This document shows, piece after piece, positions 4,768 through 63,091 of a stretch of DNA of 64,000 bases. The DNA is from Aequorivita sp. UBA3180 (GTDB lineage Bacteria; Bacteroidota; Bacteroidia; Flavobacteriales; Flavobacteriaceae), in NCBI GenBank assembly GCA_002364215.1, contig DEXQ01000018.1:183287-247286 (forward strand), in the 5' to 3' direction. The notes under the pieces were generated by a model, which saw only the letters and a list, made by a program, of their open reading frames with translations, ran no database searches and had not been told where the DNA came from. Every line of letters begins with the position of its first letter. Position 1 is the first letter of the stretch. Both the position numbers and the translations under genes were made by a program.

Positions 4768-4781
4768 ATGACTTTAGTCAT
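4768..4781 (+). promoter_or_regulatory. FNR-like box upstream of hpf-usp
   Basis: ATGAC-TTTA-GTCAT; TATATTTG at 4804 (22-bp gap). Confidence 0.8.
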
Positions 4782-4837
4782 TTTAAAACCCACAAATTCT
4801 GGATATATTTGAGATGTATAAAAAAATTAAGAGTATC

Positions 4838-5137
4838 ATGACTATAAACATTCAGTATGTGAAAATGCCCACCAGTGAGGCGATGAACGAATATGTTGAA
4901 AAAAAACTTCAAAAACTTGCAGAAAAGTATGAGTGGCTTATTAGAGCCGATGTAAGTTTTAAGTTGGAAAACAACGTTTACGGCAAAGGCAATATATGTG
5001 AAATGGAACTGAGCCTTCCGGGACCTAAAATTTTTGCAACATCAAAAGAGGCAACTTTTGAAGCGGCCGCAAAAGAAACAATTTCAGACCTTGAAAAACA
5101 GCTTAAAAAGCGCAAGGCAAAATTCACAACACACTAA
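4838..5137 (+). CDS. hpf: Ribosome hibernation promoting factor / RaiA family (short form)
   Basis: MTINIQ...SEAMNEYVEKKLQKL...C.....LPG..IFA......FEAA..E....LEKQL.KRK. The ATG at 4838 is preferred over 4814 because of the promoter position. Confidence 0.85.
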   Translation: MTINIQYVKMPTSEAMNEYVEKKLQKLAEKYEWLIRADVSFKLENNVYGKGNICEMELSLPGPKIFATSKEATFEAAAKETISDLEKQLKKRKAKFTTH

Positions 5138-5149
5138 AAACCAGTACAG

Positions 5150-5986
5150 ATGAAAAAAATATTAGTCCCCGTAGATTTTTCCGACCATTCAGAATATGCG
5201 TTGGAAGTAGCTGCTAACATTGCAAAAAAGCAAAATGCCGAAATCGTTGCGGTACATATGATGGGTCTTAGTGACGCAGTTTTAACGCGCGATGAAAGCA
5301 AGGAAGTTTTTGAGGCGATGTTTTATATGAAACTTGCAGAAAAGCGTTTTGCCGAATTCCTTGACAAAGAATACCTAAAAGGAATTACGGTTACCGATGC
5401 GGTCCACAATTATAAAATTTTTAGTGAATTGAATGATGTGGCCCGAGATTTTGGAGCAGATTTAATAGTAATGGGATCTCACGGAAGTTCCGGTTTAAAA
5501 GAGGTTTTCGTAGGAAGTAACACAGAAAAAGTAGTGCGCACTTCCGAAATACCTGTTTTGGTAATAAAGCACCGTCATGAAAATTTCAATCCAGAATTTG
5601 GGGTGTTCGCCTGCGACTTTTTGGAAAACTCAATAGGACCGTACAAGCGCGCCCAAAAAATGTTTGATGCTTTGGGGATAGAGATGCAAACGCTTTATGT
5701 AAACCTAGCAGGCGATTTCCGCAGCACCCGTGAAATTGAAAAAAGAATCCTCGGGTTTTTGAAAAGCGCAGGAGAGGCAAACCCACTTGAAACACTGAAC
5801 AAAGTAGCACAGTACAATGAATATTCTGTAGAAGCTGGAATTTTTGGCTACAGCCAAGTAAGTAATGCCGATATTATTGCATTGCCTACGCAAGGCCGTC
5901 AAGGTTTGGCACATTTCTTTTCTGGAAGTATAGGCGAAGATGTAGTAAACCATTCTGACTTGCCGGTAATGACTTTTAAAGTTTAG
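5150..5986 (+). CDS. Universal stress protein (tandem USP domains)
   Basis: MKKILVPVDFS, DLIVMGSHGSSG...GSNTEKVVR...PVLVI. Confidence 0.95.
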   Translation: MKKILVPVDFSDHSEYALEVAANIAKKQNAEIVAVHMMGLSDAVLTRDESKEVFEAMFYMKLAEKRFAEFLDKEYLKGITVTDAVHNYKIFSELNDVARDFGADLIVMGSHGSSGLKEVFVGSNTEKVVRTSEIPVLVIKHRHENFNPEFGVFACDFLENSIGPYKRAQKMFDALGIEMQTLYVNLAGDFRSTREIEKRILGFLKSAGEANPLETLNKVAQYNEYSVEAGIFGYSQVSNADIIALPTQGRQGLAHFFSGSIGEDVVNHSDLPVMTFKV

Positions 5987-8710: not shown

Positions 8711-9115
8711 TTAATTTTCCAACAGCATTTTTAATTTTGCAAGCATAATCACTTCACTTTTGTTCTTTGCTGCAAAGGAACTGGCAATAGCGTTTGCTGT
8801 CTTCCAGATTAGATCCTTTCGTTCTTTGGTGAAAAGCTTGGGGTTCTCTTTTTTATAATCTGCAAAACTCTCAAAACAATCGCTTGCGTCAAGCTGTTCG
8901 TAGTCAAACCAATCAAATACAACTTCTATCTGGTATGCGGCATCTGAATGGAAGGGATCCTCATAATCGTCCAGGTTTTTCCATTGTTCCGCCACAATGT
9001 TTTTCAAAATATCATATTCTGCTTTCCGCACCACTTTGTCCGCCGCGGCAATGGCGTAAAAAAGTTCGCCCATTTTTTGATAAAACAGGAGTTGAGGTTT
9101 ATCAACGGTTCCCAT
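8711..9115 (-). CDS. TerB-like protein
   Basis: LFYAIAAADKVVRKAE matches the TerB AADG....E motif. Confidence 0.6.
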   Translation of the reverse strand: MGTVDKPQLLFYQKMGELFYAIAAADKVVRKAEYDILKNIVAEQWKNLDDYEDPFHSDAAYQIEVVFDWFDYEQLDASDCFESFADYKKENPKLFTKERKDLIWKTANAIASSFAAKNKSEVIMLAKLKMLLEN

Positions 9116-9174: not shown

Positions 9175-9188
9175 ATGATAAAAATCAG
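9175..9188 (-). promoter_or_regulatory. FNR-like box in the divergent terB-like / kinase promoter
   Basis: Minus strand CTGAT-TTTT-ATCAT with TAGTTTTA (9145-9152) at a 22-bp gap. On the plus strand TACTTTTG (9213) is at 24 bp. Confidence 0.7.
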
Positions 9189-9224
9189 TTCCAAAAAACT
9201 GTTTAAAATCCTTACTTTTGGGGG

Positions 9225-10460
9225 ATGAAGGTTTTTGAGGGAAAAAAAGGCAATATTTTTAAGATTCTTTCCGAAGCAATATCGGAAGGTATTGTGATAG
9301 TTAACGAAAACCAGGAAATTGTGACCTCAAATGAAGCTGCAGACCGCATGTTTGGTTATGAAGCAAAGGAACTTTTGGGAGAAAATATAAACTTGCTGAT
9401 TCCTCGAGAGTATAGGCACAGCCATACCGAACAGGTTGAGGAATACTTGGAAAAGAGCGATCCGCGCCAAATGGGCCACGGGCGTGATCTTTACGGCCGG
9501 CGCAAGGACGGTAGCGTTTTTCCGGTGGAAGCGGGCTTGAACCCCTTTGAAATTTATGGCAGTAAATATGTAATGGCGCTAGTAACCGATATTACCGTTC
9601 GTAAAACCCAAGAGAAGGAAATTATAGAGCTCAACCTGCATTTGGAGCAAAAAGTGGAGGCGCGAACCAAAGAACTTAAGCAAACAATAAAAGAGTTAAA
9701 GGAGGAAGTTTCAAAACGCAAGGAAGCAGAATATAAAATCATGGAATCGCTTCGAAAAGAAAGAGAGCTCAACGAATTGAAAACGAAATTCCTCTCGTTG
9801 GTTTCCCATGAGTTCAAGACGCCTTTAAGCGGTATTCTTACTTCAGCTACCCTTGTGGGGAAATATACAGAGACAGAGCATCAGGAAAAGCGCGAAAAGC
9901 ATTTAAGAACTATTCAAAATAAAGTGAAATACCTGAATAATATTTTGAACGATTTCCTTTCTATTGAACGTTTAGAGTCTGGCAAGGCTACTTATAAATT
10001 TGATGTCTTCCCGCTGAGCAAAGTAGTGAACGAAGTGATTTATAACGCAAATATGCTTTTGAAGGATGGCCAGCGTATAAATTATCCACAGAACATAGAC
10101 GATATTTTGGTGAATTTTGATGAAAAGATCCTTGAATTATCACTTACCAATCTTATAAACAATGCCATAAAATATTCGCCAGCACACACAGTTATAGATG
10201 TAGTGGTAATTCCACAAAAAGATTCCTTGAGTATAAAAATTATAGATGAAGGGATGGGTATTCCCGAAAAGGAACAGAAATATATTTTCAATAGGTATTT
10301 CCGTGCAGAAAACGCTCTGCTAGACCAAGGCACAGGTATTGGTCTGAATATTGTGAAAAGCCATTTGGAAAGCCTAGATGGTACAATTACCTTTGAAAGC
10401 GAACAGAGCAAAGGCAGTACGTTTACAATTACCTTTCCCACAAATAACAATACAAATTAG
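9225..10460 (+). CDS. PAS-domain sensor histidine kinase, FixL-like heme PAS
   Basis: PAS LIPREYRHSHTEQVEEYL...DPRQMGHGRDLYGRRKDG; HisKA SHEFKTPL; HATPase NLINNAIKYS, DEGMGIP, GTGIGL. Confidence 0.9.
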   Translation: MKVFEGKKGNIFKILSEAISEGIVIVNENQEIVTSNEAADRMFGYEAKELLGENINLLIPREYRHSHTEQVEEYLEKSDPRQMGHGRDLYGRRKDGSVFPVEAGLNPFEIYGSKYVMALVTDITVRKTQEKEIIELNLHLEQKVEARTKELKQTIKELKEEVSKRKEAEYKIMESLRKERELNELKTKFLSLVSHEFKTPLSGILTSATLVGKYTETEHQEKREKHLRTIQNKVKYLNNILNDFLSIERLESGKATYKFDVFPLSKVVNEVIYNANMLLKDGQRINYPQNIDDILVNFDEKILELSLTNLINNAIKYSPAHTVIDVVVIPQKDSLSIKIIDEGMGIPEKEQKYIFNRYFRAENALLDQGTGIGLNIVKSHLESLDGTITFESEQSKGSTFTITFPTNNNTN

Positions 10461-10461
10461 C

Positions 10462-11514
10462 ATGAAGACAATACTTCTTATTGAAGACGATACCGCATTA
10501 AGAGAAAATACAGCTGAACTTTTGGAGCTTTCCGGCTATACCGTTTTTACCGCACCCAATGGTAAAATTGGCATTGAAAGAGCAAAAAAGGAAAACCCGA
10601 GCATCATTGTTTGTGACATAATGATGCCAGAAATTGACGGCTATGGAGTACTTGAAAGTGTAGCTTCGGAAGAAAAAACGAAGCATATCCCTTTTATCTT
10701 TCTTTCGGCAAAAACGGAGCACAAAGAAATTCGCAAAGGTATGGATATGGGGGCGGACGACTACCTTACCAAACCATTTGACGAAGAGGAGTTGTTAAGT
10801 GCCGTAGAAAGCCGTTTGGCAAAAGCGAGTATTTTGGCAATGCGCAAGAACAATAAAGTTGCGGAGACCGATGAGGGTGATGAAAACCCACAGAACCTGA
10901 ACCAGTTGAAAAACTTTTTTTGTGATGAAGGCGAAGTGTCCAATTATAAAAAAGGAGAAACCGTTTACCAAAAAGGTGACCACTCCAACAGTATGTTCCT
11001 AATCTTGAAAGGGGTTGTGAAAACACATACGATGGACGCCAATGCGAAAGAGTTAATTACAGGGCTATACAAAGCCGATGACTTTTTGGGTTTCACTTCT
11101 TTTGACGATAACATTCCCTATAATGAAACCGCTACAGCTGTGGAAGACACTGAAGTTGTGGGAATTTCAAAAACCTATGTGAAGGATATTCTGAAAAAAA
11201 GCCAAGATGTTTCCTTAGAATTGATGAATCTTTTAACCGATAATCTTTCTGAAATAAAGCAGCAATTGGTTAAAATGGCCTACAGCTCCGTTCGGAAAAA
11301 AACGGCCAGCACCATTCTTCAATTTGTGGAGATTATGGACAAAAAACCGGATGCGCCCCTTCGCATCTCACGCAATGACCTTGCTACAACTGCCGGAATT
11401 GCTACCGAAAGCTTGATAAGAACCCTTTCAGATTTCAAAAAAGATGGTATTATTGAAATTGAAGGCCGCGATATTCGCATCGTAGATTTGGATGGTCTTC
11501 GTGATATAAACTAA
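10462..11514 (+). CDS. Response regulator with REC + cNMP-binding + Crp/Fnr HTH domains
   Basis: ILLIEDD, CDIMMP, FLSAK, YLTKPF; then YKKGETVYQKGD..LILKG.VK and ISRNDLATTAGIATESLIRTLSDF. ATG at 10462 follows the kinase stop. Confidence 0.92.
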   Translation: MKTILLIEDDTALRENTAELLELSGYTVFTAPNGKIGIERAKKENPSIIVCDIMMPEIDGYGVLESVASEEKTKHIPFIFLSAKTEHKEIRKGMDMGADDYLTKPFDEEELLSAVESRLAKASILAMRKNNKVAETDEGDENPQNLNQLKNFFCDEGEVSNYKKGETVYQKGDHSNSMFLILKGVVKTHTMDANAKELITGLYKADDFLGFTSFDDNIPYNETATAVEDTEVVGISKTYVKDILKKSQDVSLELMNLLTDNLSEIKQQLVKMAYSSVRKKTASTILQFVEIMDKKPDAPLRISRNDLATTAGIATESLIRTLSDFKKDGIIEIEGRDIRIVDLDGLRDIN

Positions 11515-11539: not shown

Positions 11540-11553
11540 CTGATTTTTATCAT
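11540..11553 (+). promoter_or_regulatory. FNR-like box upstream of usp
   Basis: CTGAT-TTTT-ATCAT; TAATTTTG at 11576 (22-bp gap). Confidence 0.8.
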
Positions 11554-11602
11554 TTTCTGTACCGACCTATAAAGATAATTTTGTCGGTAAGATTATGATG
11601 CT

Positions 11603-12442
11603 ATGATGAACGTATTGATCCCGACGGATTTTTCTGAAAATTCACACAACGCCATTAAGTATGCGCTGACATATTTTTCTGACGTTGCCGTTAATTTTTA
11701 TATTCTTCATGTCTCACCTAAAAATTCAGATTACAAAGAAGAAGAACAACACAGGTTTTCAGATTTTGAGGCTGAGATGCAGACAGTCCAGAGTACTTCC
11801 GTTTTATTAAAGGAAGAAATAAAGACATGCCAGTTTCAGTCCAAGAACCAAGCTCATAAATTCCTTCCCCTGCAGGAAAACATGAATTTGGTGGAAGCCA
11901 TTAGGAAGCAAGTGGCTGAAAAGGAAATAGACTATATTTTAATGGGCACCAAGGGCACTTCAAAATCCAATAGAAGTGAATTGGGAAGCAACACTTGTGA
12001 TGTAATTACTAAGGTAAAATGTCCCATACTTGTAATTCCCGAACATGCAAGGTTCAATGGCATTAAAAACATTGCTTTCTTAACGGATTATAATTGCATT
12101 TACCGCAACAAGGTAATCTCTTCGCTTTCTGAAACGTTGGATTTGCACCGTTCACCACTGCGAGTGCTTCACATAAAAGCGCGAAATAGTGATCTTACCG
12201 CATCACAAACTGACAACAAAGGGTTTTTACATTACTTTTTCAAAGATAAAAAGCACAGTTTCCATTTTGTTGAAAACAAAGACTTGGAAATAGGCATTCA
12301 GGATTTTGTAGAAACCTGGGAAATTAGTCTTGTTTCCATCGTGGCCAAAAACCTTAATCTTATACAAAGACTTTTATTGCGTCCTACGCTAAAATCTGTT
12401 AGTTACACTGCAGATGTGCCCTTTTTGGTACTTCATGAATAG
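11603..12442 (+). CDS. Universal stress protein (tandem)
   Basis: VLIPTDFSENS, ILMGTKG, GSNTCDVITKVKCPILVIP. Confidence 0.93.
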   Translation: MMNVLIPTDFSENSHNAIKYALTYFSDVAVNFYILHVSPKNSDYKEEEQHRFSDFEAEMQTVQSTSVLLKEEIKTCQFQSKNQAHKFLPLQENMNLVEAIRKQVAEKEIDYILMGTKGTSKSNRSELGSNTCDVITKVKCPILVIPEHARFNGIKNIAFLTDYNCIYRNKVISSLSETLDLHRSPLRVLHIKARNSDLTASQTDNKGFLHYFFKDKKHSFHFVENKDLEIGIQDFVETWEISLVSIVAKNLNLIQRLLLRPTLKSVSYTADVPFLVLHE

Positions 12443-12791: not shown

Positions 12792-12805
12792 TTGATATTT
12801 GTCAT
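12792..12805 (+). promoter_or_regulatory. FNR-like box upstream of the usp-usp-usp-ATPcone-MBL operon
   Basis: TTGAT-ATTT-GTCAT; TATCTTTA at 12828 (22-bp gap). Confidence 0.78.
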
Positions 12806-12859: not shown

Positions 12860-13705
12860 ATGCGAAAAATACTCATCCCAACTGATTTCTCTGAAAATTC
12901 AATGAATGCTGTTAAATATGCTACCGAGCTTTTTAAATATGAACGTTCAGAACTATACTTGCTTCACGCTTTTTCCGATTCGGTTTATGAAGATAAGGCC
13001 CGATTAGCCGATGCGGTTTTTGAGGAATTACAGCAAAAGGCACTTCAAAAAGCAAAGGATAATCTAGAGGAAACTCGGAAACAAATTATCGGTTTTTCCC
13101 CTAATCCAAAACACAATTTACACACCATTGCAGAGTTTGGCCTTTTAGTAGATTCGGTAAATGATTGGGTGGAAAAGGAAAATATAGATGTAGTAGTTAT
13201 GGGCACCAAGGGCGAAACTGCCGATAAAAAAATTACTTTTGGCAGCAACACACTTCAGGTAATAAAATATGTAAAATGCCCAGTGCTTGCTATTCCGGCT
13301 GTTTATGGTGATGTGCACCCGAAGCATCTACTGTTCCCAACCGATTATCAATTGCCGTACAAACGCCGCGAGTTAAAACTGGTGAGCAATATTGCAAAAT
13401 GTTTTGTTTCGAAAATGGATTTCCTTTACGTTTCAAAATTTCCGTCACTCTCATTGCGACAGCAGGATAACAAAAAATTTCTGGAAGTCTCTTTCTGTGA
13501 TAACCAAACCAATTTTCATCAAGTTTCTGGAACAAACGTTACAAAAGCCATCAATACCTTTATCATTGAAAACCCAATAGATATGCTTGTCATGGTAAAT
13601 ACCCGCCATTCCTATTTGGAAAACATACTCTACCAGTCTACCATTGAAAAGATAGGGCTCAAAATAGACATTCCTTTTTTAGTACTTCAAAATCTACCGA
13701 GATAA
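12860..13705 (+). CDS. Universal stress protein (tandem)
   Basis: MRKILIPTDFSENS, VVMGTKG, GSNTLQVIKYVKCPVLAIP. Confidence 0.95.
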   Translation: MRKILIPTDFSENSMNAVKYATELFKYERSELYLLHAFSDSVYEDKARLADAVFEELQQKALQKAKDNLEETRKQIIGFSPNPKHNLHTIAEFGLLVDSVNDWVEKENIDVVVMGTKGETADKKITFGSNTLQVIKYVKCPVLAIPAVYGDVHPKHLLFPTDYQLPYKRRELKLVSNIAKCFVSKMDFLYVSKFPSLSLRQQDNKKFLEVSFCDNQTNFHQVSGTNVTKAINTFIIENPIDMLVMVNTRHSYLENILYQSTIEKIGLKIDIPFLVLQNLPR

Positions 13706-13724
13706 ACCTTTAAAAATATTGACA

Positions 13725-14573
13725 ATGAAAAAAATTCTTGTTCCAACCGATTTCTCAAAAAACGCTTATGCTGCTTTGTTTTATGTTACAAAACTCTTTA
13801 GTGATGAAGCGCTGCAAATTACAATTCTCCATTCCTTTGGTGAAGAAGTAGGTAAGCTAACAAGCCGTGTGGATATTGGACGTTCTGAAAATATAATTGA
13901 AAAACTATATCGTCAATCAGATGAGGATGGAGAACAACTGGTTCATAAAATAAAACTTGATTCCTCTAAAGTTGCACACAATTTTGAAGTCATTTCCACC
14001 CCCGCCACTCTATCAAAGACCATTAATAAATTGGTTTCTACGGAAGGGATAGATCTCGTGGTAATGGGCAGCAAGGGCCGCACGGGTGCCGAAGATGTTC
14101 TGGTGGGAAGTACAACTGTAAAAATAACCAAATCTTTAGAAGGGTGTCCGCTGCTCATCGTACCTAGGGAAGTTGATTTTGTTGTTCCCACAAATATAGC
14201 TTTCGCGACAGACTACAATGATTTCTATCAACTTTCAAAATTGAGACCAATCGTTCGTTTGGTGCGACAGTACAATTCAAATATACATATGCTACACGTG
14301 GGGAGTGAAAATGAATTGGATGCCAAACAACAACAAAATCTTGAACAATACCGAAATGACCTTACTGAATATGACACAGAGTTCCATTTCATACCTAAAA
14401 AGGAAAATATTTCAAAAACACTGCACAACTTCATTGATAGCAATAAAATGGACTTATTGGCCTTGGTGTACCACAAACATGCTTTTTTAAAGCAACTCTT
14501 CCGCGAGCCAGTAGTTAGTAGGGTAGGGAAGCACACGCATACACCTACTTTGGTAATTCCTATTAAAAACTAA
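13725..14573 (+). CDS. Universal stress protein (tandem)
   Basis: MKKILVPTDFSKNA, LVVMGSKG..G......GSTT. ATG at 13725. Confidence 0.95.
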   Translation: MKKILVPTDFSKNAYAALFYVTKLFSDEALQITILHSFGEEVGKLTSRVDIGRSENIIEKLYRQSDEDGEQLVHKIKLDSSKVAHNFEVISTPATLSKTINKLVSTEGIDLVVMGSKGRTGAEDVLVGSTTVKITKSLEGCPLLIVPREVDFVVPTNIAFATDYNDFYQLSKLRPIVRLVRQYNSNIHMLHVGSENELDAKQQQNLEQYRNDLTEYDTEFHFIPKKENISKTLHNFIDSNKMDLLALVYHKHAFLKQLFREPVVSRVGKHTHTPTLVIPIKN

Positions 14574-14584
14574 AATTTCAAAAA

Positions 14585-15436
14585 ATGAAAAAGCGAATAT
14601 TAATACCCACAGATTTTTCAAGAAACGCATGGAATGCAATAAAATATGCCATGGAGCTCTATAAGAGGGAATATGTGGAGTTTTTCATATTGCACACCTA
14701 TTACCTTTCAGGGTATTCAAAAGAAAACCTATTGAGTCCTGAACCTACGGAAAAAGATCTAAAAAAAGTTCAGGAAGCTTCAGAGAAAGACATGGAGAAG
14801 CTGAAGGTGCAAATGGGTTTCTATGAAGAAAATGACAACCACACATTTCAATATATGAGTGAATTTGGCTCGTTCTTCGATGTGATGAAAAAGACTGTGG
14901 AAAAGCAGGACATAGAATTGGTAGTTATGGGAACCCAAGGAGAGACGGACAATAAAACCGTTATTTTGGGCAGTAACGCAGTAAATGCAATGGAAAAAAT
15001 TAGAAATTGCCCAGTGCTTGCCATTCCTTCAAATGTGTTATTCAAAGATCCGAATGAAATTGTATTTCCCACTAGCTTTAGAACACATTACAAAGAAAAG
15101 GAATTGGCTACTTTAGTAGAAATTTCACGCTGCACTAACTCCCCAATCCGTATTTTGCATATTCAAAAAGGAAAAAATCTTTCAAAATCGCAACTGGAAA
15201 ATAAAGCTTTGTTGGAAAAAATTCTGGAAGCTGCCAATTACACCCATCATACCCTATACGACATCGAGATTAATGACGGCGTACGCTGTTTCGTGCAAAG
15301 CCGACAGAGCGAGATGATTGCCATTGTAAACAAGAAGCACAATTTCTTTGGAAGTGTATTTTCAAATCCGATGGTCAAAGAACTCGGCAAGCACAGTAAC
15401 GTGCCACTTTTGGCGATGCACGATTTAAGAAATTGA
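14585..15436 (+). CDS. Universal stress protein (tandem)
   Basis: ILIPTDFSRNA, LVVMGTQG, GSNAV..M.K...CPVLAIP. Confidence 0.95.
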   Translation: MKKRILIPTDFSRNAWNAIKYAMELYKREYVEFFILHTYYLSGYSKENLLSPEPTEKDLKKVQEASEKDMEKLKVQMGFYEENDNHTFQYMSEFGSFFDVMKKTVEKQDIELVVMGTQGETDNKTVILGSNAVNAMEKIRNCPVLAIPSNVLFKDPNEIVFPTSFRTHYKEKELATLVEISRCTNSPIRILHIQKGKNLSKSQLENKALLEKILEAANYTHHTLYDIEINDGVRCFVQSRQSEMIAIVNKKHNFFGSVFSNPMVKELGKHSNVPLLAMHDLRN

Positions 15437-16287
15437 GCAAAATGTCAAAAAATCATCAGGATATTGAAGTAATAAAACATTCAGGCCAAAAGGCGAAGTT
15501 TTCAATTGAAAAACTAAAAGGCTCGCTACGGAAAAGCGGCGCGGATGAAGCATTGGTCAACGAAATTGCAAATAACGTCCGCGATGAGCTTTATCAGGGT
15601 ATTTCAACTAAAGAAATCTACAATCGTGCCTTTGCGCTTCTCAAAAAAAAGAAAAAAGGCTACGCTTCAAAATATAAGTTGAAAAAAGCAATTTACGAGC
15701 TTGGTCCCACAGGTTTTCCTTTTGAAAAATTTGTTGGGGCAATCCTTTTTTACAGTGGTTATGAAGTAAAGACAGGGCAGTTTTTACAGGGAAAATGCGT
15801 AACCCACGAAGTAGATGTGGTAGCGCATAAAAACGGACAGTATGTTGTGGCTGAGTGTAAATTCCATAGTGATGAGGGGCGTAATTGTGATATAAAAGTT
15901 CCACTCTATATACATTCCCGCTATCGCGACATTCTCAATTTTTACGCCAATAGTAACAATGGTGAAAAACCAAACGAAGGTTGGGTAGTTACCAATACCC
16001 GTTTTACCGAAGATGCCATAAAATATGGGGAATGCGTTGGCCTCCACCTTTTAAGCTGGGATCTTCCGAAAGATAATGGTATCAAGGACCGTATAGACCG
16101 TTTGGGACTCTATCCTGTTACCGTTTCCACCTTACTAAGTCAGCGAGAGAAACAGTTTTTGCTCAGCCGTGATGTAGTGCTCTGCAAGCAATTGATAAAT
16201 GATCATTTCTATTTGGACCATTTGGGAATTTCAGAAAAAAGAAAAGAGAGGATATTAAATGAGATTGAACAATTATGCAAAAAATAA
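15433..16287 (+). CDS. ATP-cone domain + Mrr-like PD-(D/E)xK restriction endonuclease domain protein (copy 1)
   Basis: N-terminal VIKHSG....F..EKL..SL..SG (ATP cone); C-terminal FEKFV..IL...GY, HEVDVVA, AECKFH. Confidence 0.8.
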   Translation: MSKMSKNHQDIEVIKHSGQKAKFSIEKLKGSLRKSGADEALVNEIANNVRDELYQGISTKEIYNRAFALLKKKKKGYASKYKLKKAIYELGPTGFPFEKFVGAILFYSGYEVKTGQFLQGKCVTHEVDVVAHKNGQYVVAECKFHSDEGRNCDIKVPLYIHSRYRDILNFYANSNNGEKPNEGWVVTNTRFTEDAIKYGECVGLHLLSWDLPKDNGIKDRIDRLGLYPVTVSTLLSQREKQFLLSRDVVLCKQLINDHFYLDHLGISEKRKERILNEIEQLCKK

Positions 16288-17645
16288 AAATCCATTTCCT
16301 CGGTGCAGCGGGAACCGTAACGGGTTCGAAATATTTAATTGAAACTTCTGAAAAGAATATTTTAATAGACTGTGGCATGTTTCAGGGTCTAAAGGAATTG
16401 CGCGAAAAGAATTGGGAGTATTTGCCTATAGATGTTTCAACGATAGATATAGTACTTTTAACACACGGCCATTTAGACCATACGGGCTATTTGCCGCGAT
16501 TGGTAAAACAAGGTTTCCGCGGAAAGATAATCGGAACTGCACCAACACTGGCAATTACTAAAATAATTTTGCTGGACAGTGCCAAAATCCACGAAGAAGA
16601 AGCTGAAAGAGCGAATGAAGGAGGCTATTCCAAACACAAACCCGCCGAGCCGTTTTATAGTGGTGAAGAAGCTGAGGTTACATTAGGTTTTTTCCATGCT
16701 GAAGAAAAAGATAAATGGATTAAACTTTCAGAAAATATACAATATCGGTTTCGGTATAACGGGCATATTATTGGTGCTACTTTCATTGAGCTGGAAATTT
16801 TCGGAAAAATATTTGTCTTTTCGGGTGATATTGGTCGTGAGCACGATTTATTGCTTTCCCCGCCCGAAAAACCGCAATGGGCAGACTATCTTTTTATGGA
16901 AAGCACTTACGGAAACAAATTGCATCCAAAGGAAAGCGTTACGGATAAATTGGTTGAACTCATCACGAAAACCATTCACAACCGCGGCAATTTGATAATT
17001 CCTTCCTTTGCGGTGGAACGCTTACAGACGCTGATGTTTTTACTTTGGAAATTGTATAACGAAAATAAAATTCCAAACATCCCAATTTTTATTGATAGTC
17101 CGATGGGCAATAATGTACTTTCGGTATTTCAAAATTTTCCGGATTGGCACAAACTGCCGATGAAGGATTTTAACGCAATGAACAACCGGATGAATATTAT
17201 TACTTCCTATAAGGAAACTTGGGAAACCATTGACAATCCGCAGCCGAAAGTTGTTATTGCAGGTAGTGGAATGGTTACCGGCGGAAGGGTTCTTACTTAT
17301 TTGAAACAGATGATTGATAAGACAAATACGACCGTTTTATTGGTAGGCTACCAAGCCGAAGGAACCCGAGGAAGACAACTTTTGGAAGGTGCGTATGAGT
17401 TGAAATTCTTTGGAAAATACTATCCCGTAAAAGCTGAAGTCCATCATATAGAAAGTCTTTCAGCCCACGCTGACCAGCAGGGACTTTTGGATTGGACGAG
17501 CAAAATAAAAAATATACCCGAAGAAGTATTTCTAATTCACGGCGAGCCTACGGCGCAGGATGCTTTTCGGGTGAAATTGCATGATACCTATGGATGGAAT
17601 GTAACCATTCCGATGTTATATGAAATAAAGGAGATTGTGATTTAA
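16275..17645 (+). CDS. MBL-fold beta-CASP hydrolase (RNA-processing family)
   Basis: FLGAAGTVTGS, THGHLDH, FSGDIG, MESTYG, PSFAVER, SAHAD, IHGE. Confidence 0.92.
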   Translation: MQKIKIHFLGAAGTVTGSKYLIETSEKNILIDCGMFQGLKELREKNWEYLPIDVSTIDIVLLTHGHLDHTGYLPRLVKQGFRGKIIGTAPTLAITKIILLDSAKIHEEEAERANEGGYSKHKPAEPFYSGEEAEVTLGFFHAEEKDKWIKLSENIQYRFRYNGHIIGATFIELEIFGKIFVFSGDIGREHDLLLSPPEKPQWADYLFMESTYGNKLHPKESVTDKLVELITKTIHNRGNLIIPSFAVERLQTLMFLLWKLYNENKIPNIPIFIDSPMGNNVLSVFQNFPDWHKLPMKDFNAMNNRMNIITSYKETWETIDNPQPKVVIAGSGMVTGGRVLTYLKQMIDKTNTTVLLVGYQAEGTRGRQLLEGAYELKFFGKYYPVKAEVHHIESLSAHADQQGLLDWTSKIKNIPEEVFLIHGEPTAQDAFRVKLHDTYGWNVTIPMLYEIKEIVI

Positions 17646-17650
17646 AATTT

Positions 17651-18226
17651 TTATGCAAATGCAACTACTCCATTGAGAAGGGTATAGATAATAGCGGTTA
17701 TTAACCCTATTAAAAAGATAATGACTGAAACAAATAGAAGTCGCTGTTTATGGGTGATTATTTTGCCTAAAAAATACAAATCGATTATCATTTCGTCATA
17801 AATATTTTGGCCTTTTTTCATTATTCGTTTAAACTCGTTTTTAAATTCAGTTAGCGACAGTTTTGCAAAATTTTCGGCATATAAGGTTCCTTTGTAACCA
17901 CTTTTTTTATAAGATGATCCAAAATATCGATGTGGCACCATACTGAATAGTGCGAAGATCATTGATAGCAAGCTGCAGATTATCAAAATTCGAGTGCCTA
18001 TTTCCAACGGAACTTTCTGCGATTTGGGAACTACAAATAACAAACCTAAAAGTAGTGACGTTATGATAGAATTTACCGTTAGCACTATCCTAGCTTTATT
18101 GTCAACCATTTTTAGAAGATTGTAGTGATTTCGAGAGAGGGTTTTAAATAAAGTTTGCACACCTCGGGCATCATAGCGCTCCAATTTTTCTTGTTTATGA
18201 ATGGTTTCTTTTTCCATAATAAGCAA
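17651..18226 (-). CDS. Pycsar-effector-family (DUF5706) transmembrane protein, stand-alone
   Basis: RNHYNLLKMVDNKARIVLTVNSII, S...ALFSMVP, IYDEM..DLYFLG.I...K..LL..S..IF.IG. Likely ATG at 18217. Confidence 0.75.
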   Translation of the reverse strand: MLIMEKETIHKQEKLERYDARGVQTLFKTLSRNHYNLLKMVDNKARIVLTVNSIITSLLLGLLFVVPKSQKVPLEIGTRILIICSLLSMIFALFSMVPHRYFGSSYKKSGYKGTLYAENFAKLSLTEFKNEFKRIMKKGQNIYDEMIIDLYFLGKIITHKQRLLFVSVIIFLIGLITAIIYTLLNGVVAFA

Positions 18227-19069
18227 TTATAAGTCACATAATTTTTTTATTTCGTTTAAAACTTTTTCCTTTCTCAGTGTAGAAATTCCAATTTTATCCA
18301 ACAAATGAGAGTCTTTATAAAGCTCTTTGGTAAGGATTACATTGTATTTAATGAGGAGATGTTTTTCATTTTTTGTCAATGTGGTTAAGGTGGTGATGGG
18401 GTAGAGGGCAAACTTGTCCACATTCTGTTTTATGCCGTTGTTTTTTGGATAGTCCCAACTCAATAAATGTAGCCCCACACACTTGGCGTAATCAATTGCA
18501 TCGGTTGAAAAGCGCGTGTTAGTTACCAACCAGCCTTGTTTTAAATGAGATGCTTTTTTTGAGTCGTTGTTCCAACATTTTTGAATATCCAAAAACCTGG
18601 AGTTTATGTATAGCGGGACTTTAACATTGCTAACGGCCTTGGGGTCTGCATGGAATTTACATTCAACCGTATAAGTATTACCATCTTTTTCGGCCAGAAC
18701 GTCTACTTCGTGGGTAATACATTCACCTTGCATAATAATGCCCACTTGCGTACTATAGCCGTGATGCTTCAGCAAGGCACTTACCAACTGTTCAAAAGGA
18801 TAGCCTGTTGGGCCTAAATCTAAAATTGCGCGCTTCAAACTGTATTTAGAAGCTGAAGTGCGATTGTGTTTCTTTAAAAGGGAAAAAGCTTTTTTGTAGA
18901 TTTCTTTGGAAGGCATACCATCATATAGCGTGGGCATTATTTGTTCCACAATTTCGTCTATTTCACTTTCTGAGGCTTTGCTTCGCCTTAGCGAAGTTTT
19001 CAACTTTTCCGCATTGAATGTTTCAATTTCTCCGTTGAATTTCTTTATTTCTATGCTGTCATTTTTCAT
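18227..19069 (-). CDS. ATP-cone + restriction endonuclease domain protein (copy 2)
   Basis: IKKFNGEIETFNAEKLKTSLRRS; LGPTGYPFEQLV, HEVDVLA, ECKFH, KVPLYINSR. Clear paralogue of 15433-16287. Confidence 0.8.
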   Translation of the reverse strand: MKNDSIEIKKFNGEIETFNAEKLKTSLRRSKASESEIDEIVEQIMPTLYDGMPSKEIYKKAFSLLKKHNRTSASKYSLKRAILDLGPTGYPFEQLVSALLKHHGYSTQVGIIMQGECITHEVDVLAEKDGNTYTVECKFHADPKAVSNVKVPLYINSRFLDIQKCWNNDSKKASHLKQGWLVTNTRFSTDAIDYAKCVGLHLLSWDYPKNNGIKQNVDKFALYPITTLTTLTKNEKHLLIKYNVILTKELYKDSHLLDKIGISTLRKEKVLNEIKKLCDL

Positions 19070-28930: not shown

Positions 28931-29545
28931 TTACTTTTTTATGGAATTGATTATAAACTCAGAAACAGAGACTTTTCGTTCTTCCATCATTTTTTTGAAA
29001 GCCTTGTCGTCAATCTTCAAAAACCCTTTTATTAAGGGTGTTGCCACAAAAGGAAAAATATTCAGCGAAATAATATTTACAAAAAGTTGCTCCCCATCTA
29101 TGGGTTTCAGAATGCCCTTTTCCACTTCTTCGTTCACTTGATTTTTAAATTTTTCCAGTGTTGGAAAAGCTGCGTTTTGTTGGATTTTCTCAAAAAACTT
29201 AGGATTCCGATTCAATTCCTGAATTATGAAATTGGGCAGATAGGGATGCTTTGATATAAAAGTGATGTAATTGTGTGTGAAGTTTTTCACTTTGTCCTCA
29301 ATGGAGGAATCATCGTTCAGAATTTTATTGAGCTGTGGTGCTAAAAGAGAAAAGGCATTGCTGAAAACCGCTTCAAAAAGCAATTGTTTGCTTCGGTAGT
29401 AATAATGCAGCATCGCTTTGTTAATGCCCGCCTCGTCTGCAATTTCCTGCATACGCGCGCCATCCATTCCTTTCTTTTGGAATACGCTTTCGGCAGCGTT
29501 CAGTATTTGCCCCTCCGTATCCTGATTTTTATTTGTCTTTGCCAT
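28931..29545 (-). CDS. TetR/AcrR family regulator
   Basis: ILNAAESVFQKKGMDGARMQEIADEAGINKAMLHYYYRSK. Confidence 0.95.
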   Translation of the reverse strand: MAKTNKNQDTEGQILNAAESVFQKKGMDGARMQEIADEAGINKAMLHYYYRSKQLLFEAVFSNAFSLLAPQLNKILNDDSSIEDKVKNFTHNYITFISKHPYLPNFIIQELNRNPKFFEKIQQNAAFPTLEKFKNQVNEEVEKGILKPIDGEQLFVNIISLNIFPFVATPLIKGFLKIDDKAFKKMMEERKVSVSEFIINSIKK

Positions 29546-29645: not shown

Positions 29646-29659
29646 TTGATTTATATCAT
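29646..29659 (+). promoter_or_regulatory. FNR-like box upstream of lipoprotein gene
   Basis: TTGAT-TTAT-ATCAT; TAAGTTTA at 29682 (22-bp gap). Confidence 0.75.
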
Positions 29660-29780: not shown

Positions 29781-30413
29781 ATGCAAAAATTATTGGTCAT
29801 AACAATTTTTGTCACGTTACTTTCCGGGTGTTCCAGCAGCCGTTTGGTTGATGAATACATAAATACAGAAGCGCCAAATTTTCAGGCCAATAAAGTTTTG
29901 GTGGTTGGGTTAACACCAGACGCAGTTTTGCAGCGCCAATTTGAATATAGTCTTTCGCAAGCTTTGGAAGCCGAAGGGGTGATTACCGTAAAAAGTGTTG
30001 AATATTTTGAAAGTACCTTCTCAGAAAACAATCAAACGGAAGAAAATTTAAAAAGCATAGAAAATGAACTTTTAAATGCAGGTTTTGATGCGGTGCTTTT
30101 TTCAAAAGTTACGGGGCAGGAAAGCAAGGTAACCATTGGGCAATCTTATAGAAATCTTGCAAAATCCTTTGAGTCATTCAGTGATTATTATAATGAAAAT
30201 AGGCCTGTGTATGGCAATGAGCAGATTGAAGACTACCCAGTTTATAATACCGAAACCTCTTTGTATTGTCTCTGCCCCGGCAAGGAGCGTGATTTAATCT
30301 GGCGAGGAAAGATAGACATTGTCAATCCGCCGGGAGCTGCATCCACCATTCGTGATTATGTAAAAACAATTGTGCAAACGCTTAAAAGGAATAATCTTCT
30401 AATTTTATTGTGA
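29781..30413 (+). CDS. Lipoprotein of unknown function (DUF4136-like)
   Basis: Lipobox LSGC; alpha/beta domain ending ETSLY.L......LIW.G. Confidence 0.7.
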   Translation: MQKLLVITIFVTLLSGCSSSRLVDEYINTEAPNFQANKVLVVGLTPDAVLQRQFEYSLSQALEAEGVITVKSVEYFESTFSENNQTEENLKSIENELLNAGFDAVLFSKVTGQESKVTIGQSYRNLAKSFESFSDYYNENRPVYGNEQIEDYPVYNTETSLYCLCPGKERDLIWRGKIDIVNPPGAASTIRDYVKTIVQTLKRNNLLILL

Positions 30414-31403: not shown

Positions 31404-31417
31404 ATGACAAAAATCAT
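31404..31417 (+). promoter_or_regulatory. FNR-like box for the nos operon
   Basis: ATGAC-AAAA-ATCAT; TAATTTTG at 31440 (22-bp gap). Confidence 0.82.
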
Positions 31418-32667: not shown

Positions 32668-34635
32668 ATGAAAAAAACAATTAATATTTTAGTTTCCCTT
32701 GTTATGGTTGCCGGATTGGTAAGCTGTAATAATGGTGATAACAAAAAACAAAGTAAGGGGCAGGGTGGTTTGGCCACCAACGCCGCTGAAAAAGTTTACG
32801 TAGCACCCGGCGAACACGATGATTATTACGCATTCTTCTCTGGAGGGTATAGTGGTAACCTTACCGTTTACGGGCTTCCATCTGGACGTATGTTCAAGGA
32901 AATTCCGGTATTTTCGCAATTCCCTACCAGTGGTTATGGCTATTCAGAAGAAACCTTGCCTATGTTCAACACCTCATTTGGTTTTGTGCCTTGGGACGAT
33001 TCCCACCACCCTGATATTTCACAAACAAACGGGAAATTGGACGGACGATGGATTTTTATAAATGGAAATAATACGCCCCGTATTGCCCGAATCGATTTGG
33101 AAACTTTTGAAACTGTAGAAATTATCGAGCTGCCAAATAGTGCAGGAAACCACAGTTCTTCCTTCATTACCGAAAATACCGAATACGTTGTAGCTGGAAC
33201 TCGTTTCTCTGTACCAGTGCCACAACGTGATATGCCGATAAAAGATTACAAAGGTAACTTTAAAGGCGCACTTTCATTCGTGAGTGTAGATCAGGAAACT
33301 GGTCGTATGGGCATTAAATTTCAATTGATGATGCCAGGTTTTAACTATGACCTTTCACACCCTGGACGTGACAAATCTCACGGATGGTTTTTCTTTACTA
33401 CCTATAATACTGAGGAAGCAAATACATTGATGGAGGTAAATTCATCACAAAATGACAAGGATTTCATTGCGGCTGTAAACTGGAAAGTAATTGAAGAATA
33501 TGTAAATAACGGAGGCGGAACAAAAATGCCGGCTAACTATGCGCATAACGTATATGATCATAATACGCATATGGCCACATCAACTATGGAAAAAGAGGTG
33601 CTAACTGTAGATCCTACCAAAGTTCCCGGCGCAGTTTTCTTTCTTCCTACACCAAAGTCTCCACACGGTTGTGACGTAGATCCAACTGGAGAATACATAA
33701 TAGGTAACGGTAAACTTTCTGCTGACCTTACAGTACACTCTTTCACTAAAATGATTGATGCTATTGAAAATAAAAAGTTTGATGGCGAAGCTTATGGAAT
33801 TCCTATCTTAAAATTTGAGGATGTATTGGCAGGTACTGTAAAACAACCAGGATTAGGCCCATTACACACTGAGTTTGATGGCAAAGGAAATGCTTATACC
33901 ACCTTCTTTATTTCTTCTGAAGTAGTAAAATGGAAACTAGGAACTTGGGAAGTTTTGGACCGCCAACCAGTATTTTATTCTGTGGGTCACGGCATGATTC
34001 CTGGTGGAAACTCACGTGAGCCTTTCGGTAAATATTTTGTTGCAATGAACAAGATTACAAAAGACCGTTACTTGCCAACAGGACCAGAACTGGAACACTC
34101 TGCACAGTTGTTTGATATTTCCGGAGACAAGATGGAATTGCTGTTAGATTTCCCAACCCATGGGGAACCACATTATGCTGCTGGTATTGCTGCAGATATA
34201 TTGAAGAAAAATGCTAAGCAATTTTACAAATTGTCAGAAAATACAAACCCTTATGCCACACTTTCTGAAGCAGATGCACGTGTAGAGCGCAAAGGCAACG
34301 AAGTTCATATTTATATGACTACCATACGAAGTCACTTTACTCCAGATAATATTGAGGGTGTAAAAGTGGGTGACAAGGTATTCTTCCATATTACAAACCA
34401 CGAACAGGATTTTGATGTACCACACGGATTTGCAATGATAGGCGCAAATAACGCTGAATTATTGATAATGCCTGGACAAACCAAAACCTTGGTTTGGGAA
34501 CCAAAACAAGTGGGAGTATGGCCATTCTATTGTACAGATTTCTGTTCTGCACTTCACCAGGAAATGCAAGGTTACGTTCGCGTGAGCCCAGCAAATTCCA
34601 ATATGGAGCTTAGTTGGTCCTTGGGTGAAGATTAA
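32668..34635 (+). CDS. nosZ: Nitrous oxide reductase, clade II (Sec/lipoprotein signal)
   Basis: FFSGGYSG, DDSHHP, GNHSS, KSPHGCD, GPLHT, CuA motif HGF...CTDFCSALHQEM. Signal LVSC with no twin-Arg. Confidence 0.97.
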   Translation: MKKTINILVSLVMVAGLVSCNNGDNKKQSKGQGGLATNAAEKVYVAPGEHDDYYAFFSGGYSGNLTVYGLPSGRMFKEIPVFSQFPTSGYGYSEETLPMFNTSFGFVPWDDSHHPDISQTNGKLDGRWIFINGNNTPRIARIDLETFETVEIIELPNSAGNHSSSFITENTEYVVAGTRFSVPVPQRDMPIKDYKGNFKGALSFVSVDQETGRMGIKFQLMMPGFNYDLSHPGRDKSHGWFFFTTYNTEEANTLMEVNSSQNDKDFIAAVNWKVIEEYVNNGGGTKMPANYAHNVYDHNTHMATSTMEKEVLTVDPTKVPGAVFFLPTPKSPHGCDVDPTGEYIIGNGKLSADLTVHSFTKMIDAIENKKFDGEAYGIPILKFEDVLAGTVKQPGLGPLHTEFDGKGNAYTTFFISSEVVKWKLGTWEVLDRQPVFYSVGHGMIPGGNSREPFGKYFVAMNKITKDRYLPTGPELEHSAQLFDISGDKMELLLDFPTHGEPHYAAGIAADILKKNAKQFYKLSENTNPYATLSEADARVERKGNEVHIYMTTIRSHFTPDNIEGVKVGDKVFFHITNHEQDFDVPHGFAMIGANNAELLIMPGQTKTLVWEPKQVGVWPFYCTDFCSALHQEMQGYVRVSPANSNMELSWSLGED

Positions 34636-38926: not shown

Positions 38927-38940
38927 ATGACTTTGGTCAT
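38927..38940 (+). promoter_or_regulatory. FNR-like box upstream of 600-aa gene
   Basis: ATGAC-TTTG-GTCAT; weak -7 element CACCTTTA at 38963 (22-bp gap). Confidence 0.72.
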
Positions 38941-41100: not shown

Positions 41101-41114
41101 ATGATAATGGTCAT
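41101..41114 (+). promoter_or_regulatory. FNR-like box for the nor operon
   Basis: ATGAT-AATG-GTCAT; TTATTTTG at 41137 (22-bp gap). Confidence 0.78.
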
Positions 41115-41192: not shown

Positions 41193-41639
41193 ATGTTAAG
41201 CAAACAACAAGCACGGGCATTTTTCCTTGGCGGAACGCTCGTAACATTCCTGATTTTTATTGGCCTTACCATTTATTCATTTAGCGATGGCAACGACCAA
41301 ACCAACTATGAAAACATTACCGAACAAGTAGTGCGCGGCAAGGTTATCTGGGAAGAGAACAACTGTATGGGCTGCCACACCATTCTTGGGGAAGGTGCCT
41401 ATTATGCACCCGAACTTACCAAGGTAATTGAACGCCGTGGCGAAGGCTACGTAAAAGCAGTGCTTATGACTCCAGTGCCTTGGGCACCAAACGATCGCAA
41501 AATGGTAGCCTACGGTTTTTCCGAAGAAGAAGCTATGGATGTCATCGCCTTTTTTAATTGGATTGGGGAGATAGACCTAAATGGCTTTGACCGTATTGTG
41601 TCGCCGTTGGCAAAAGACAAGCAACTAACCAATAACTAA
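41193..41639 (+). CDS. norC: Nitric oxide reductase cytochrome c subunit
   Basis: N-terminal TM, GKVIWEENNCMGCHTILGEGAYYAPELT. Confidence 0.93.
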   Translation: MLSKQQARAFFLGGTLVTFLIFIGLTIYSFSDGNDQTNYENITEQVVRGKVIWEENNCMGCHTILGEGAYYAPELTKVIERRGEGYVKAVLMTPVPWAPNDRKMVAYGFSEEEAMDVIAFFNWIGEIDLNGFDRIVSPLAKDKQLTNN

Positions 41640-41661
41640 CCAAAAATAAAATTTTATACTG

Positions 41662-43011: not shown

Positions 43012-43133
43012 TAAATTAAAGGCCTGAAATGGGTTACGCTCTTATACCTGAAAACCTGGGAATTAATTCATATAAAACAGTTTTAAGTCATTCCCAACCA
43101 GAACCAAGTTTCGGGCCTTTTTAATAAATTGTT

Positions 43134-43230
43134 TGTCTGGTCGAGCCCTTCGGCAGACTCAGGATAAACTAAAGTCGTGATCTAATTAGCAGTAGGAAAC
43201 TTAGCGTTTTCGACTGCACTCGAACTGACA
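43134..43230. repeat. REP/REPIN-like palindromic intergenic element
   Basis: Outer arms tgtctggtcgag / ctcgaactgaca (10/12 complementary) with an internal cccttcggcagactcagg unit. Confidence 0.55.
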
Positions 43231-43247
43231 TTTAAAAATTTAGCATT

Positions 43248-44069: not shown

Positions 44070-44079
44070 GCCAAAAGCC

Positions 44080-45849: not shown

Positions 45850-45850
45850 A

Positions 45851-50334: not shown

Positions 50335-50348
50335 CTGATATTTATCAT
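50335..50348 (+). promoter_or_regulatory. FNR-like box, possibly bidirectional
   Basis: CTGAT-ATTT-ATCAT; TATTTTTA at 50371 (+, 22-bp gap) and TAATTTCG at 50305-50312 (-, 22-bp gap). Confidence 0.78.
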
Positions 50349-50400
50349 ATTTCAGGCAAGAGTGATAGGGTATTTTTACGACCAAATAATTCAATTTGAA

Positions 50401-55395: not shown

Positions 55396-55409
55396 CTGAC
55401 CAAAGTCAT
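55396..55409 (+). promoter_or_regulatory. FNR-like box upstream of CoA transferase
   Basis: CTGAC-CAAA-GTCAT; AACCTTTG at 55432 (22-bp gap). Confidence 0.72.
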
Positions 55410-55454
55410 TTCAGGAACAGTTTAGATTCCCAACCTTTGACAAAAATTAAAATT

Positions 55455-58166: not shown

Positions 58167-58180
58167 ATGATTTAGGTCAT
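58167..58180 (+). promoter_or_regulatory. FNR-like box upstream of ric
   Basis: ATGAT-TTAG-GTCAT; GAAATTTG at 58203 (22-bp gap). Confidence 0.75.
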
Positions 58181-58240
58181 ATTTTGGGTGTGAATTTATG
58201 CTGAAATTTGCCCCATATTATTCATAAAAAGATATTTACC

Positions 58241-60341: not shown

Positions 60342-60355
60342 CTGATAATTGTCAT
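60342..60355 (+). promoter_or_regulatory. FNR-like box upstream of ccoI
   Basis: CTGAT-AATT-GTCAT; AACCTTTG at 60378 (22-bp gap). Confidence 0.75.
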
Positions 60356-60415
60356 TTGGCGAAACCAAATCTCTTTCAACCTTTGCAACAGGTATAACGA
60401 GCAATTTTTTAATTG

Positions 60416-62823: not shown

Positions 62824-62837
62824 TTGACAAATGTCAT
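62824..62837 (+). promoter_or_regulatory. FNR-like box upstream of ccoS-ccoN
   Basis: TTGAC-AAAT-GTCAT; TAATTTTG at 62860 (22-bp gap). Confidence 0.8.
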
Positions 62838-62884: not shown

Positions 62885-63091
62885 ATGACCATAATCTATA
62901 TGCTATTGGCAATCAGTGTTTTTGTAGCGCTCATATTTTTTGTGCTGTTTATCTTTTCAGTAAAAAAGGGCCAGTATGATGATACCTATACTCCTTCCGT
63001 GCGTATGCTTTTTGATGATGAACTGGTAAAAGAAGGTCCTTCAAATAAAAAGAATACTTCAAAAGAAATTAAAACCAATCCAGAAAAATAA
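62885..63091 (+). CDS. ccoS: cbb3 oxidase maturation protein CcoS/FixS
   Basis: N-terminal TM, then [18 protein letters not shown]. Confidence 0.92.

Follow-up and report, generated by a model that had tools for sequence, protein, structure and literature searches.

We wanted to understand how a marine flavobacterium, Aequorivita sp. UBA3180, might sense oxygen (O2), and which of its proteins would read the FNR-type boxes that stand before its low-oxygen genes. To our knowledge, O2 control of respiration is almost unstudied in Bacteroidota. Members of this group are abundant consumers of nitrous oxide (N2O) in the sea and in soil, and carry clade II nosZ. The window, that is the whole stretch of 64,000 nucleotides analysed here (C12:183287-247286 in our numbering of the contigs), comes from a genome of 3.2 Mb that is 99.99% complete, and the closest relatives of its proteins bear the names Aequorivita and Vitellibacter. 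The window contains a gene for a histidine kinase with a PAS domain and, separated from its stop codon by a single nucleotide, a gene for a hybrid response regulator, in which a receiver domain is fused to a Crp/Fnr protein. Both open reading frames (ORFs) are located where an earlier note on this DNA had placed them, the regulator frame covering the gene given in Table 1. We observed a complete transmitter and receiver, encoded by tightly linked and co-conserved genes, an output half that belongs to the FNR lineage, and boxes placed at a fixed, class II-like spacing before low-O2 genes. We estimate, at a probability of roughly 0.6, that the kinase is an O2-sensing haem protein and the regulator a receiver-FNR switch, which together would turn on genes of low-oxygen life, of denitrification (N2O reductase included) and of dormancy. 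The two proteins are probably a cognate two-component system that serves as the FNR of this bacterium.

The gene pair is part of a conserved module. Among 28 loci with three genes resolved, the order PAS kinase, hybrid regulator and tandem universal stress protein (Usp) was found in 27, the exception being locus L029, with no Usp start in the downstream gene. The regulator frame is open from position 10378, yet the conserved start is the ATG at 10462 (MKTILLIEDD in the orthologue alignment) and the longer frame is not conserved. In the database this protein is labelled merely 'response regulator'. The kinase is soluble, with no Cys residue and no membrane segment, and consists of a PAS domain, a coiled coil, HisKA and HATPase_c. 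Pfam recognised its PAS domain (residues 17-122, 2.8e-14) as well as HisKA and HATPase_c.

In the regulator, Pfam detected Response_reg (residues 4-116, 3e-29), cNMP_binding (161-246, PF00027, 4e-17) and HTH_Crp_2 (282-349, PF13545, 1.5e-13). There was no GerE hit in this search; unlike FixJ, with its LuxR/GerE-type helix-turn-helix (HTH), the hybrid has cNMP_binding and HTH_Crp_2 as its output. When 29 orthologues were aligned, the DD pair and the CDIMMP and TKP motifs of the receiver were invariant and the Ser of FLSAK was kept in at least 80%. A variable linker spans residues 120-160 approximately. The C-terminal half carries a conserved HTH (...GIATESLIRTLS...), and its recognition helix ATESLIR, of the E-x3-R type, is conserved in 29 orthologues, with the Glu in at least 80% of them. 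The earlier note had described a receiver Asp joined to a Crp/Fnr domain with precisely this helix and without the Cys cluster of FNR, and this description holds in full: the receiver has D52, the helix occupies residues 314-320, and the only two Cys residues of the regulator, C51 (in the receiver) and C154, stand at no FNR ligand position.

The closest comparison is offered by the Cys-containing FNR (Cys-FNR) of flavobacteria that have no hybrid. This protein has 225 aa, an N-terminal Cys (C29, in MxKCxQC), C53, C59 and the Cys of a CFIP motif, which would match C122 of E. coli FNR. Its recognition helix is GTATESAIR, and a box is found about 42 nt before its own ATG, a sign of autoregulation. 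Residues 163-349 of the hybrid share 33% identity with residues 36-224 of Cys-FNR and every FNR Cys is replaced, the residues at the positions of C53, C59 and C106 being L, V and V. The recognition helices differ little (TATESAIR in Cys-FNR, IATESLIR in the hybrid). Judged by its sequence, the output half is a relative of FNR whose iron-sulphur (Fe-S) arm gave way to a receiver, and would descend from the flavobacterial FNR lineage, not from FixK.

The intergenic regions beside the gene pair showed TGAT-N4-ATCA, and the degenerate consensus TGAY-N4-RTCA returned 14 sites in the window, exactly the 14 boxes to which the earlier note had referred. There are 126 such sites in the whole genome, and 2.5 are expected per 64 kb (Poisson P = 5e-7). 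An A/T spacer was present in nine boxes of the window, compared with 28 genome-wide. Twelve of the 14 lay 39-128 nt 5' of an ATG-start ORF of at least 90 aa, compared with 20 of 112 elsewhere in the genome (P = 7e-7). We also tried the canonical FNR box, TTGAT-N4-ATCAA, and rejected it as the consensus; with one mismatch allowed it was not enriched in the window (10 sites vs 5.8 expected).

The position of the boxes relative to the promoters was strikingly regular. From the centre of the box to the first base of the Bacteroidetes -7 element TAnnTTTG the distance is exactly 29 nt in all 27 orthologous Usp promoters, and in the window the same spacing, with at most one mismatch in the element, was found in 13 of 16 box orientations. 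In the kinase promoter the corresponding distance is 31 nt. Provided that TAnnTTTG starts at -12, the box centre would lie at -41.5, the class II position of CRP and FNR. Each of the 27 orthologous loci has a box whose distance to the Usp ATG is 54-76 nt, and a second one precedes the kinase in most of them. In our window the box TGATAAAAATCA stands in the promoter of the kinase-regulator operon itself, which predicts autoregulation. The kinase mRNA may be leaderless, because the -7 element TACTTTTG ends 4 nt before the ATG.

We compared the distribution of the box with that of its possible binders in 151 Flavobacteriaceae genomes; besides the genome of the window, each genus contributed one. 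Of these, 72 encode a full-length hybrid, with 41-93% identity across residues 1-350. The genera divide into 38 with both hybrid and Cys-FNR, 34 with the hybrid only, 52 with Cys-FNR only and 27 with neither. A box was present 5' of the tandem Usp gene in 27 of 27 hybrid loci (19 of them from hybrid-only genomes), in 17 of 26 FNR-only loci and in one of five loci of the 'neither' class. In this last class just seven of the 27 genomes have a tandem Usp gene, and the lone boxed promoter among the five analysable ones comes from a genome that is 80% complete. Since genomes without a hybrid have the box at their Usp genes at the same distance (the 17 of 26 loci), the box is not specific to the hybrid.

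The earlier note had proposed a look for other Crp/Fnr genes in the genome. There are three besides the hybrid, which we call (a), (b) and (c), and none of them tracks the box. Flavobacterial Cys-FNR is absent from the window's genome and from its congener. The C-terminal half of the hybrid scored 100-111 bits against Cys-FNR, and 49, 46 and 29 bits against (c), (b) and (a), respectively. We rejected (a) as the box binder, as its helix RVVVSR does not have the Glu of E-x3-R and its score against the hybrid was 29 bits. Paralogue (b) was rejected on its distribution: just 32 of the 151 genomes have a protein of this type, and nine hybrid-only genomes with a box at Usp have none. Paralogue (c) has the helix PESLSR; proteins of its type were rejected too, as they are missing from three of these nine (b)-less, box-bearing genomes and present in genomes without the box. 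Thus, the box follows 'FNR or hybrid' and none of the other factors tested, and as this genome has no Cys-FNR, the hybrid is left as the candidate binder here. It is the best candidate for the 14 boxes, as the earlier note had suggested: it is the closest to the box-associated Cys-FNR, that FNR is absent, the box occurs in 19 hybrid-only genera, and the other paralogues do not follow it. We find it likelier than not, in sum, that the hybrid would be the sole FNR-type factor of this regulon.

The next question is which signal reaches the regulator. The earlier note had aligned a part of the PAS domain (kinase residues 58-96) with FixL and proposed that the proximal His and the distal Arg were kept. 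A phmmer search against all PDB sequences agreed with this. Its top matches were haem-PAS domains only, namely DosP (2.8e-20), the haem domain of EcDOS (2.6e-19) and FixL of three species (about 1e-17); the next classes were a 2026 entry (1e-9), a haem-binding PAS by its fold-library name, and LOV domains (1e-8). In the alignment H67 falls on His77 of DosP, R87 on Arg97 and H85 on Met95. The distance of 20 residues from H67 to R87 equals the spacing of H200 and R220 in BjFixL. In DosP and FixL these residues serve as the proximal His and the distal Arg, and Met95 is an axial ligand in DosP. Among 27 orthologous kinases, all from different genera, H67 was invariant while its neighbours varied (it was also found in 16 of 16 sequences of a second alignment), and R87 was kept in 22, with which the alignment of 16 sequences agrees. 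The motif IP...H...GKGR is kept in a kinase from another family as well. When the AlphaFold2 (AF2) model of the domain was used in a fold search, the best matches were the PAS domain of FixL (template modelling score, TM, 0.82) and the haem domain of EcDOS (36% identity). As far as a comparison of sequences can tell, a b-type haem is most likely bound to His67 of the domain, and Arg87 would lie over the distal pocket.

We considered a LOV photoreceptor and rejected it. The kinase has no Cys at all and therefore no flavin-adduct Cys (NCRFL motif), so the PAS domain is not a LOV domain. The FixL equivalog model (NCBIfam NF041777) reached 100.9 bits against a cut-off of 850, and its PAS part alone matched. 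As a separate observation, the kinase of about a dozen genera is longer (495 aa or more, extending beyond the fetched locus) and has an additional N-terminal region before the haem-type PAS domain (loci L006, L010-L013, L015, L017, L019 and L024-L027).

Several observations weigh against an O2-sensing haem kinase that acts through the hybrid on all of these genes. Arg87 is replaced (by M, S, I, L or Q) in five of the 27 orthologues, Glu stands at the position of FixL Arg206, and FixL His214 is, like Arg206, not conserved as such in the kinase orthologues. The fold search parts haem-PAS from LOV domains weakly (5e-11 vs 5e-10), and the fold alone is not decisive. The AF2 model has a predicted local distance difference test (pLDDT) value of 78, and of just 67-69 over residues 61-90, the predicted haem pocket. 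Haem, moreover, is not readable from a sequence. All this would suit a PAS domain that binds another ligand or none, in a kinase reporting for example the metabolic or energy state, with its likeness to FixL and DosP due to shared ancestry only. We regard such a domain as quite unlikely: the sequence search sets the haem-PAS matches about eight orders of magnitude apart from all others, the proximal His does not vary in 27 genera, in contrast to the residues around it, and there is no Cys for a flavin adduct. The low pLDDT in the F-helix and FG loop is expected, because a cofactor pocket was modelled without its cofactor.

His85 raises a different doubt. It stands at the position of the axial Met95 of DosP and could give a six-coordinate haem, which would make the kinase a sensor of redox state or of nitric oxide (NO) or carbon monoxide (CO) rather than a simple O2 sensor. 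The same system would then be a switch for denitrification and nitrosative stress, comparable to the Met95-ligated haem of DosP or to NO-responsive haem sensors. His occupies this position in 16 of the 27 orthologous kinases, and nor, nos, ric and a truncated globin beside an Rrf2 regulator are part of the regulon in the window. We find a signal of this kind rather unlikely all the same. Across genera the most conserved targets are Usp genes, the window contains cbb3 maturation genes, and these are classic low-O2 targets. Further, many genera of the family have the module, relatives use Cys-FNR, which is of an O2-labile type, at the same boxes, and the genome has a distinct Rrf2 (NsrR-like) regulator for NO.

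The last doubts concern the regulator. Paralogue (b), which has no Cys and the helix VETVIR, could share the nor and nos boxes as a DNR-like factor. In the extreme case the hybrid would be limited to its own operon and the adjacent Usp gene, and another Crp/Fnr protein, chiefly (b) in the manner of DNR/NnrR, would occupy most of the boxes (nor, nos, cco). The recognition helix of (b) is of the E-x3-R type, two FNR-family factors have one box type in common in classical denitrifiers, and this genome has (b), as do 11 of the 20 hybrid-only genomes represented in our set of loci. Such a division of labour seems improbable to us, given that (b) scored 55-68 bits against the box-associated Cys-FNR whereas the hybrid scored 100-111, that (b) is distributed as described above, and that all boxes of the window have one consensus and one -7 spacing in common. 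Paralogue (b) might also work beside the hybrid as a DNR/HcpR-like partner that responds to NO. Further, 38 genera keep FNR and the hybrid together, so the two are not simply interchangeable.

If the kinase senses O2 through haem and the hybrid binds the boxes, which is the reading we prefer, the system could work in the following way. The ligand state of the PAS haem, most likely the loss of O2, would set the activity of the kinase, in the manner of FixL and DosP. We expect the deoxy form to be the active one, because of the analogy with FixL and the nature of the targets (cbb3 oxidase, nos, nor, Usp, hpf). The kinase would autophosphorylate on His195 and pass the phosphate to Asp52 of the regulator, the motifs for both steps being present. 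Where FNR has its N-terminal Fe-S arm, the regulator has the receiver and what appears to be a flexible linker, and we suppose that phosphorylation-driven dimerisation of the receiver replaces the assembly of a [4Fe-4S] cluster in promoting the DNA-binding dimer. This dimer is predicted to bind TGAY-N4-RTCA centred at about -41.5 as a class II activator, in agreement with the geometry relative to the -7 element. Its targets in the window would be its own operon, hpf, tandem Usp genes, nosZ and accessory genes, norCBQDE and a second nor-like pair, and further the acetate/acetyl-CoA enzymes, ric, ccoI and ccoS-ccoN.

The earlier note had described the pair as the FixL-FixJ-FixK cascade collapsed into two genes. 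This is right as to the logic and wrong as to the ancestry, since neither protein is an orthologue of FixL, FixJ or FixK (the FixL model gave 101 bits against 850). The cascade is found in rhizobia and Caulobacter, and has a variant, hFixL-FxkR-FixK, in Rhizobium leguminosarum (PMC7888657). As in that cascade, a kinase of the haem-PAS type would stand at the top and a Crp/Fnr protein at the bottom. The FixK-type box is a TTGAT-N4-ATCAA-like palindrome that precedes fixNOQP/fixGHIS (cco) and denitrification genes, and the boxes of the window precede ccoI, ccoS-ccoN, nor and nos. The difference is that there are two tiers instead of three; with receiver and Crp/Fnr protein on one polypeptide, the step of fixK transcription is missing.

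Other systems share single parts with this pair. With E. coli FNR and flavobacterial Cys-FNR the hybrid has in common the effector-domain and HTH fold, a near-identical recognition helix, the box and the predicted class II geometry. Unlike FNR, it has lost the Cys ligands, and the O2 signal would come by phosphorylation from a separate haem sensor and not by destruction of a cluster. E. coli DosP (EcDOS), the best sequence match of the PAS domain, has a c-di-GMP phosphodiesterase as its output, and its Met95 corresponds to His85 here. In Mycobacterium tuberculosis, the haem sensor kinases DosS and DosT act through the response regulator DosR on a regulon rich in tandem Usp and dormancy functions. 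Our pair resembles that system in joining a haem-type kinase and a regulator to a predicted Usp-rich regulon, and differs in two respects: DosS and DosT sense through a GAF-haem, and the output of DosR is of the LuxR/NarL type with a different DNA motif. Full-text literature searches found no study of a receiver-Crp/Fnr regulator or of a flavobacterial haem-PAS kinase. The pair is an uncharacterised variant of known parts that is widespread in Bacteroidota.

Of 301 genomes that sampled the phylum as a whole, 41 also carried hybrids, and several other families of the class and a second class are represented among them. We would give even odds to a wider claim, namely that in a large part of Flavobacteriaceae (34 of the 151 genera have the hybrid without an Fe-S FNR) and in other families of Bacteroidota the master low-oxygen regulator is a haem two-component system. 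In it a receiver would stand in for the Fe-S arm, and dimerisation would be driven by phosphorylation instead of a cluster; in our strain it would gate a clade II N2O reductase, an NO reductase, a cbb3 oxidase and a DosR-like dormancy set. If this is true, the sensor, regulator, box and promoter geometry would help to predict when flavobacteria express their reductases for N2O and NO, their cbb3 oxidase and their dormancy genes. The hybrid would be a natural case of rewiring, in which the FNR scaffold changed from sensing directly through Fe-S to acting as an output under phosphorylation control, of use for understanding how dimerisation of Crp/Fnr proteins is controlled and for building synthetic O2 switches. 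Genera with the hybrid only, with FNR only and with both would form a comparative system for asking why two O2-sensing chemistries coexist.

Table 1. Features of the kinase-regulator locus, box sites with the genes that follow them, and Crp/Fnr paralogues (positions within the window, unless a contig is named)
Feature	Position	Strand	Basis or remark
Kinase ORF	9225..10460	+	411 aa; TAG stop at 10458-10460
PAS domain, FixL/DosP haem type (predicted)	9273..9590	+	phmmer, orthologue alignments, AF2 model
H67, predicted proximal haem ligand	9423-9425	+	DosP alignment
H85, at the position of DosP Met95	9477-9479	+	DosP alignment
R87, predicted distal Arg	9483-9485	+	DosP alignment
Transmitter module	9780..10442	+	phospho-His H195 (9807-9809, SHEFKTP), N box N309, G1 DEGMGI, G2 GTGIGL
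Hybrid response regulator	10462..11514	+	350 aa; receiver, variable linker of ~40 aa, FNR-like beta-roll effector domain, Crp-type HTH
Receiver domain	10471..10809	+	D9/D10, phospho-acceptor D52 (10615-10617), S82, K104
FNR-like effector domain and HTH	10942..11508	+	recognition helix ATESLIR at 11401-11421 (residues 314-320)
Tandem Usp, conserved third gene of the kinase-regulator-Usp module	11603..12442	+	domain search, orthologous loci
Box before hpf (4814-5137, ribosome hibernation factor) and tandem Usp (5150-5986)	4769..4780	+	
Box TGATAAAAATCA, kinase-regulator operon promoter	9176..9187	+	66 nt from divergent 134-aa gene 8711-9115
-7 element TACTTTTG, kinase promoter	9213..9220	+	ends 4 nt before kinase ATG
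Box TGATTTTTATCA, first downstream tandem Usp gene	11541..11552	+	box and 29-nt spacing kept in 27/27 orthologous loci
-7 element TAATTTTG, first downstream Usp gene	11576-11583	+	
Box before tandem Usp 12860-13705, then Usp genes 13719-14573 and 14585-15436	12793..12804	+	
Perfect box within the coding region of Usp gene 13719-14573	14219..14230	+	-7-like motif at +29
Box between divergent TetR gene (28931-29545, minus strand) and 210-aa gene 29781-30413	29647..29658	.	
Box before nos cluster: cytochrome c 31445, fasciclin, nosZ 32668-34635, nosL, nosD, nosF, nosY	31405..31416	+	
Box before 600-aa hypothetical gene 38999-40801	38928..38939	+	no -7 match at +29
Box before norC-norB-norQ-norD-norE (41193-46435)	41102..41113	+	
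Box between ADP-forming acetyl-CoA synthetase (48192-50246, minus strand) and second norCB-like pair (50362-52147)	50336..50347	.	
Box before acetyl-CoA hydrolase/transferase gene (55437-56723)	55397..55408	+	
Box before ScdA/RIC iron-centre repair gene, ric (58208-58966)	58168..58179	+	
Box before ccoI/fixI-type P-type ATPase gene (60413-62821)	60343..60354	+	
Box before ccoS (62885-63091, 68 aa) and ccoN (63105 onward), cbb3 oxidase genes	62825..62836	+	
Paralogue (a)	C12:152643-153317		outside the window, ~30 kb before its start, where the boxed island extends upstream; Cys-rich loop GDTCAMTLTCCLG, helix RVVVSR
Paralogue (b)	C15:226086-226718		Cys-free, FNR-like helix RVETVIR

There are six tandem Usp genes in the window, of which five have a box upstream or within their array, and in addition hpf. 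By analogy, the boxed hpf and Usp genes may lend the regulon a DosR-like dormancy character. The box inside a Usp gene may mark an internal promoter, possibly for the next Usp gene (14585), or be there by chance. The ORF between the last box and ccoN, which is CcoS/FixS-like and 68 aa long, is shorter than the usual ORF length cut-offs.

Five more promoter-placed boxes were found 5' of the window, at C12:145284-180836, and the regulon island is therefore about 100 kb long. The genes that follow these boxes encode a P-type cation ATPase, an outer-membrane-like protein, an MlaE permease, a Pyr_redox_2 flavoprotein and a cytochrome b561. Within the window, the stretch 15433-19069, placed between the Usp array and a LOG-family gene, contains two ATP-cone and Mrr-type nuclease genes, which flank genes for a beta-CASP metallo-hydrolase and a PycTM-domain protein.

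In other genomes we noticed two variants of the locus. At L075 (G134:C19) and L076 (G116:C1) a Cys-FNR gene adjoins the hybrid operon, with the helix GTAIESAIR (Thr replaced by Ile) and without an upstream box of its own. A second hybrid paralogue, of about 42% identity and often located 15-25 kb from the first, was present in several genomes, e.g. at G041:C22, G029:C4, G054:C97 and G015:C16.

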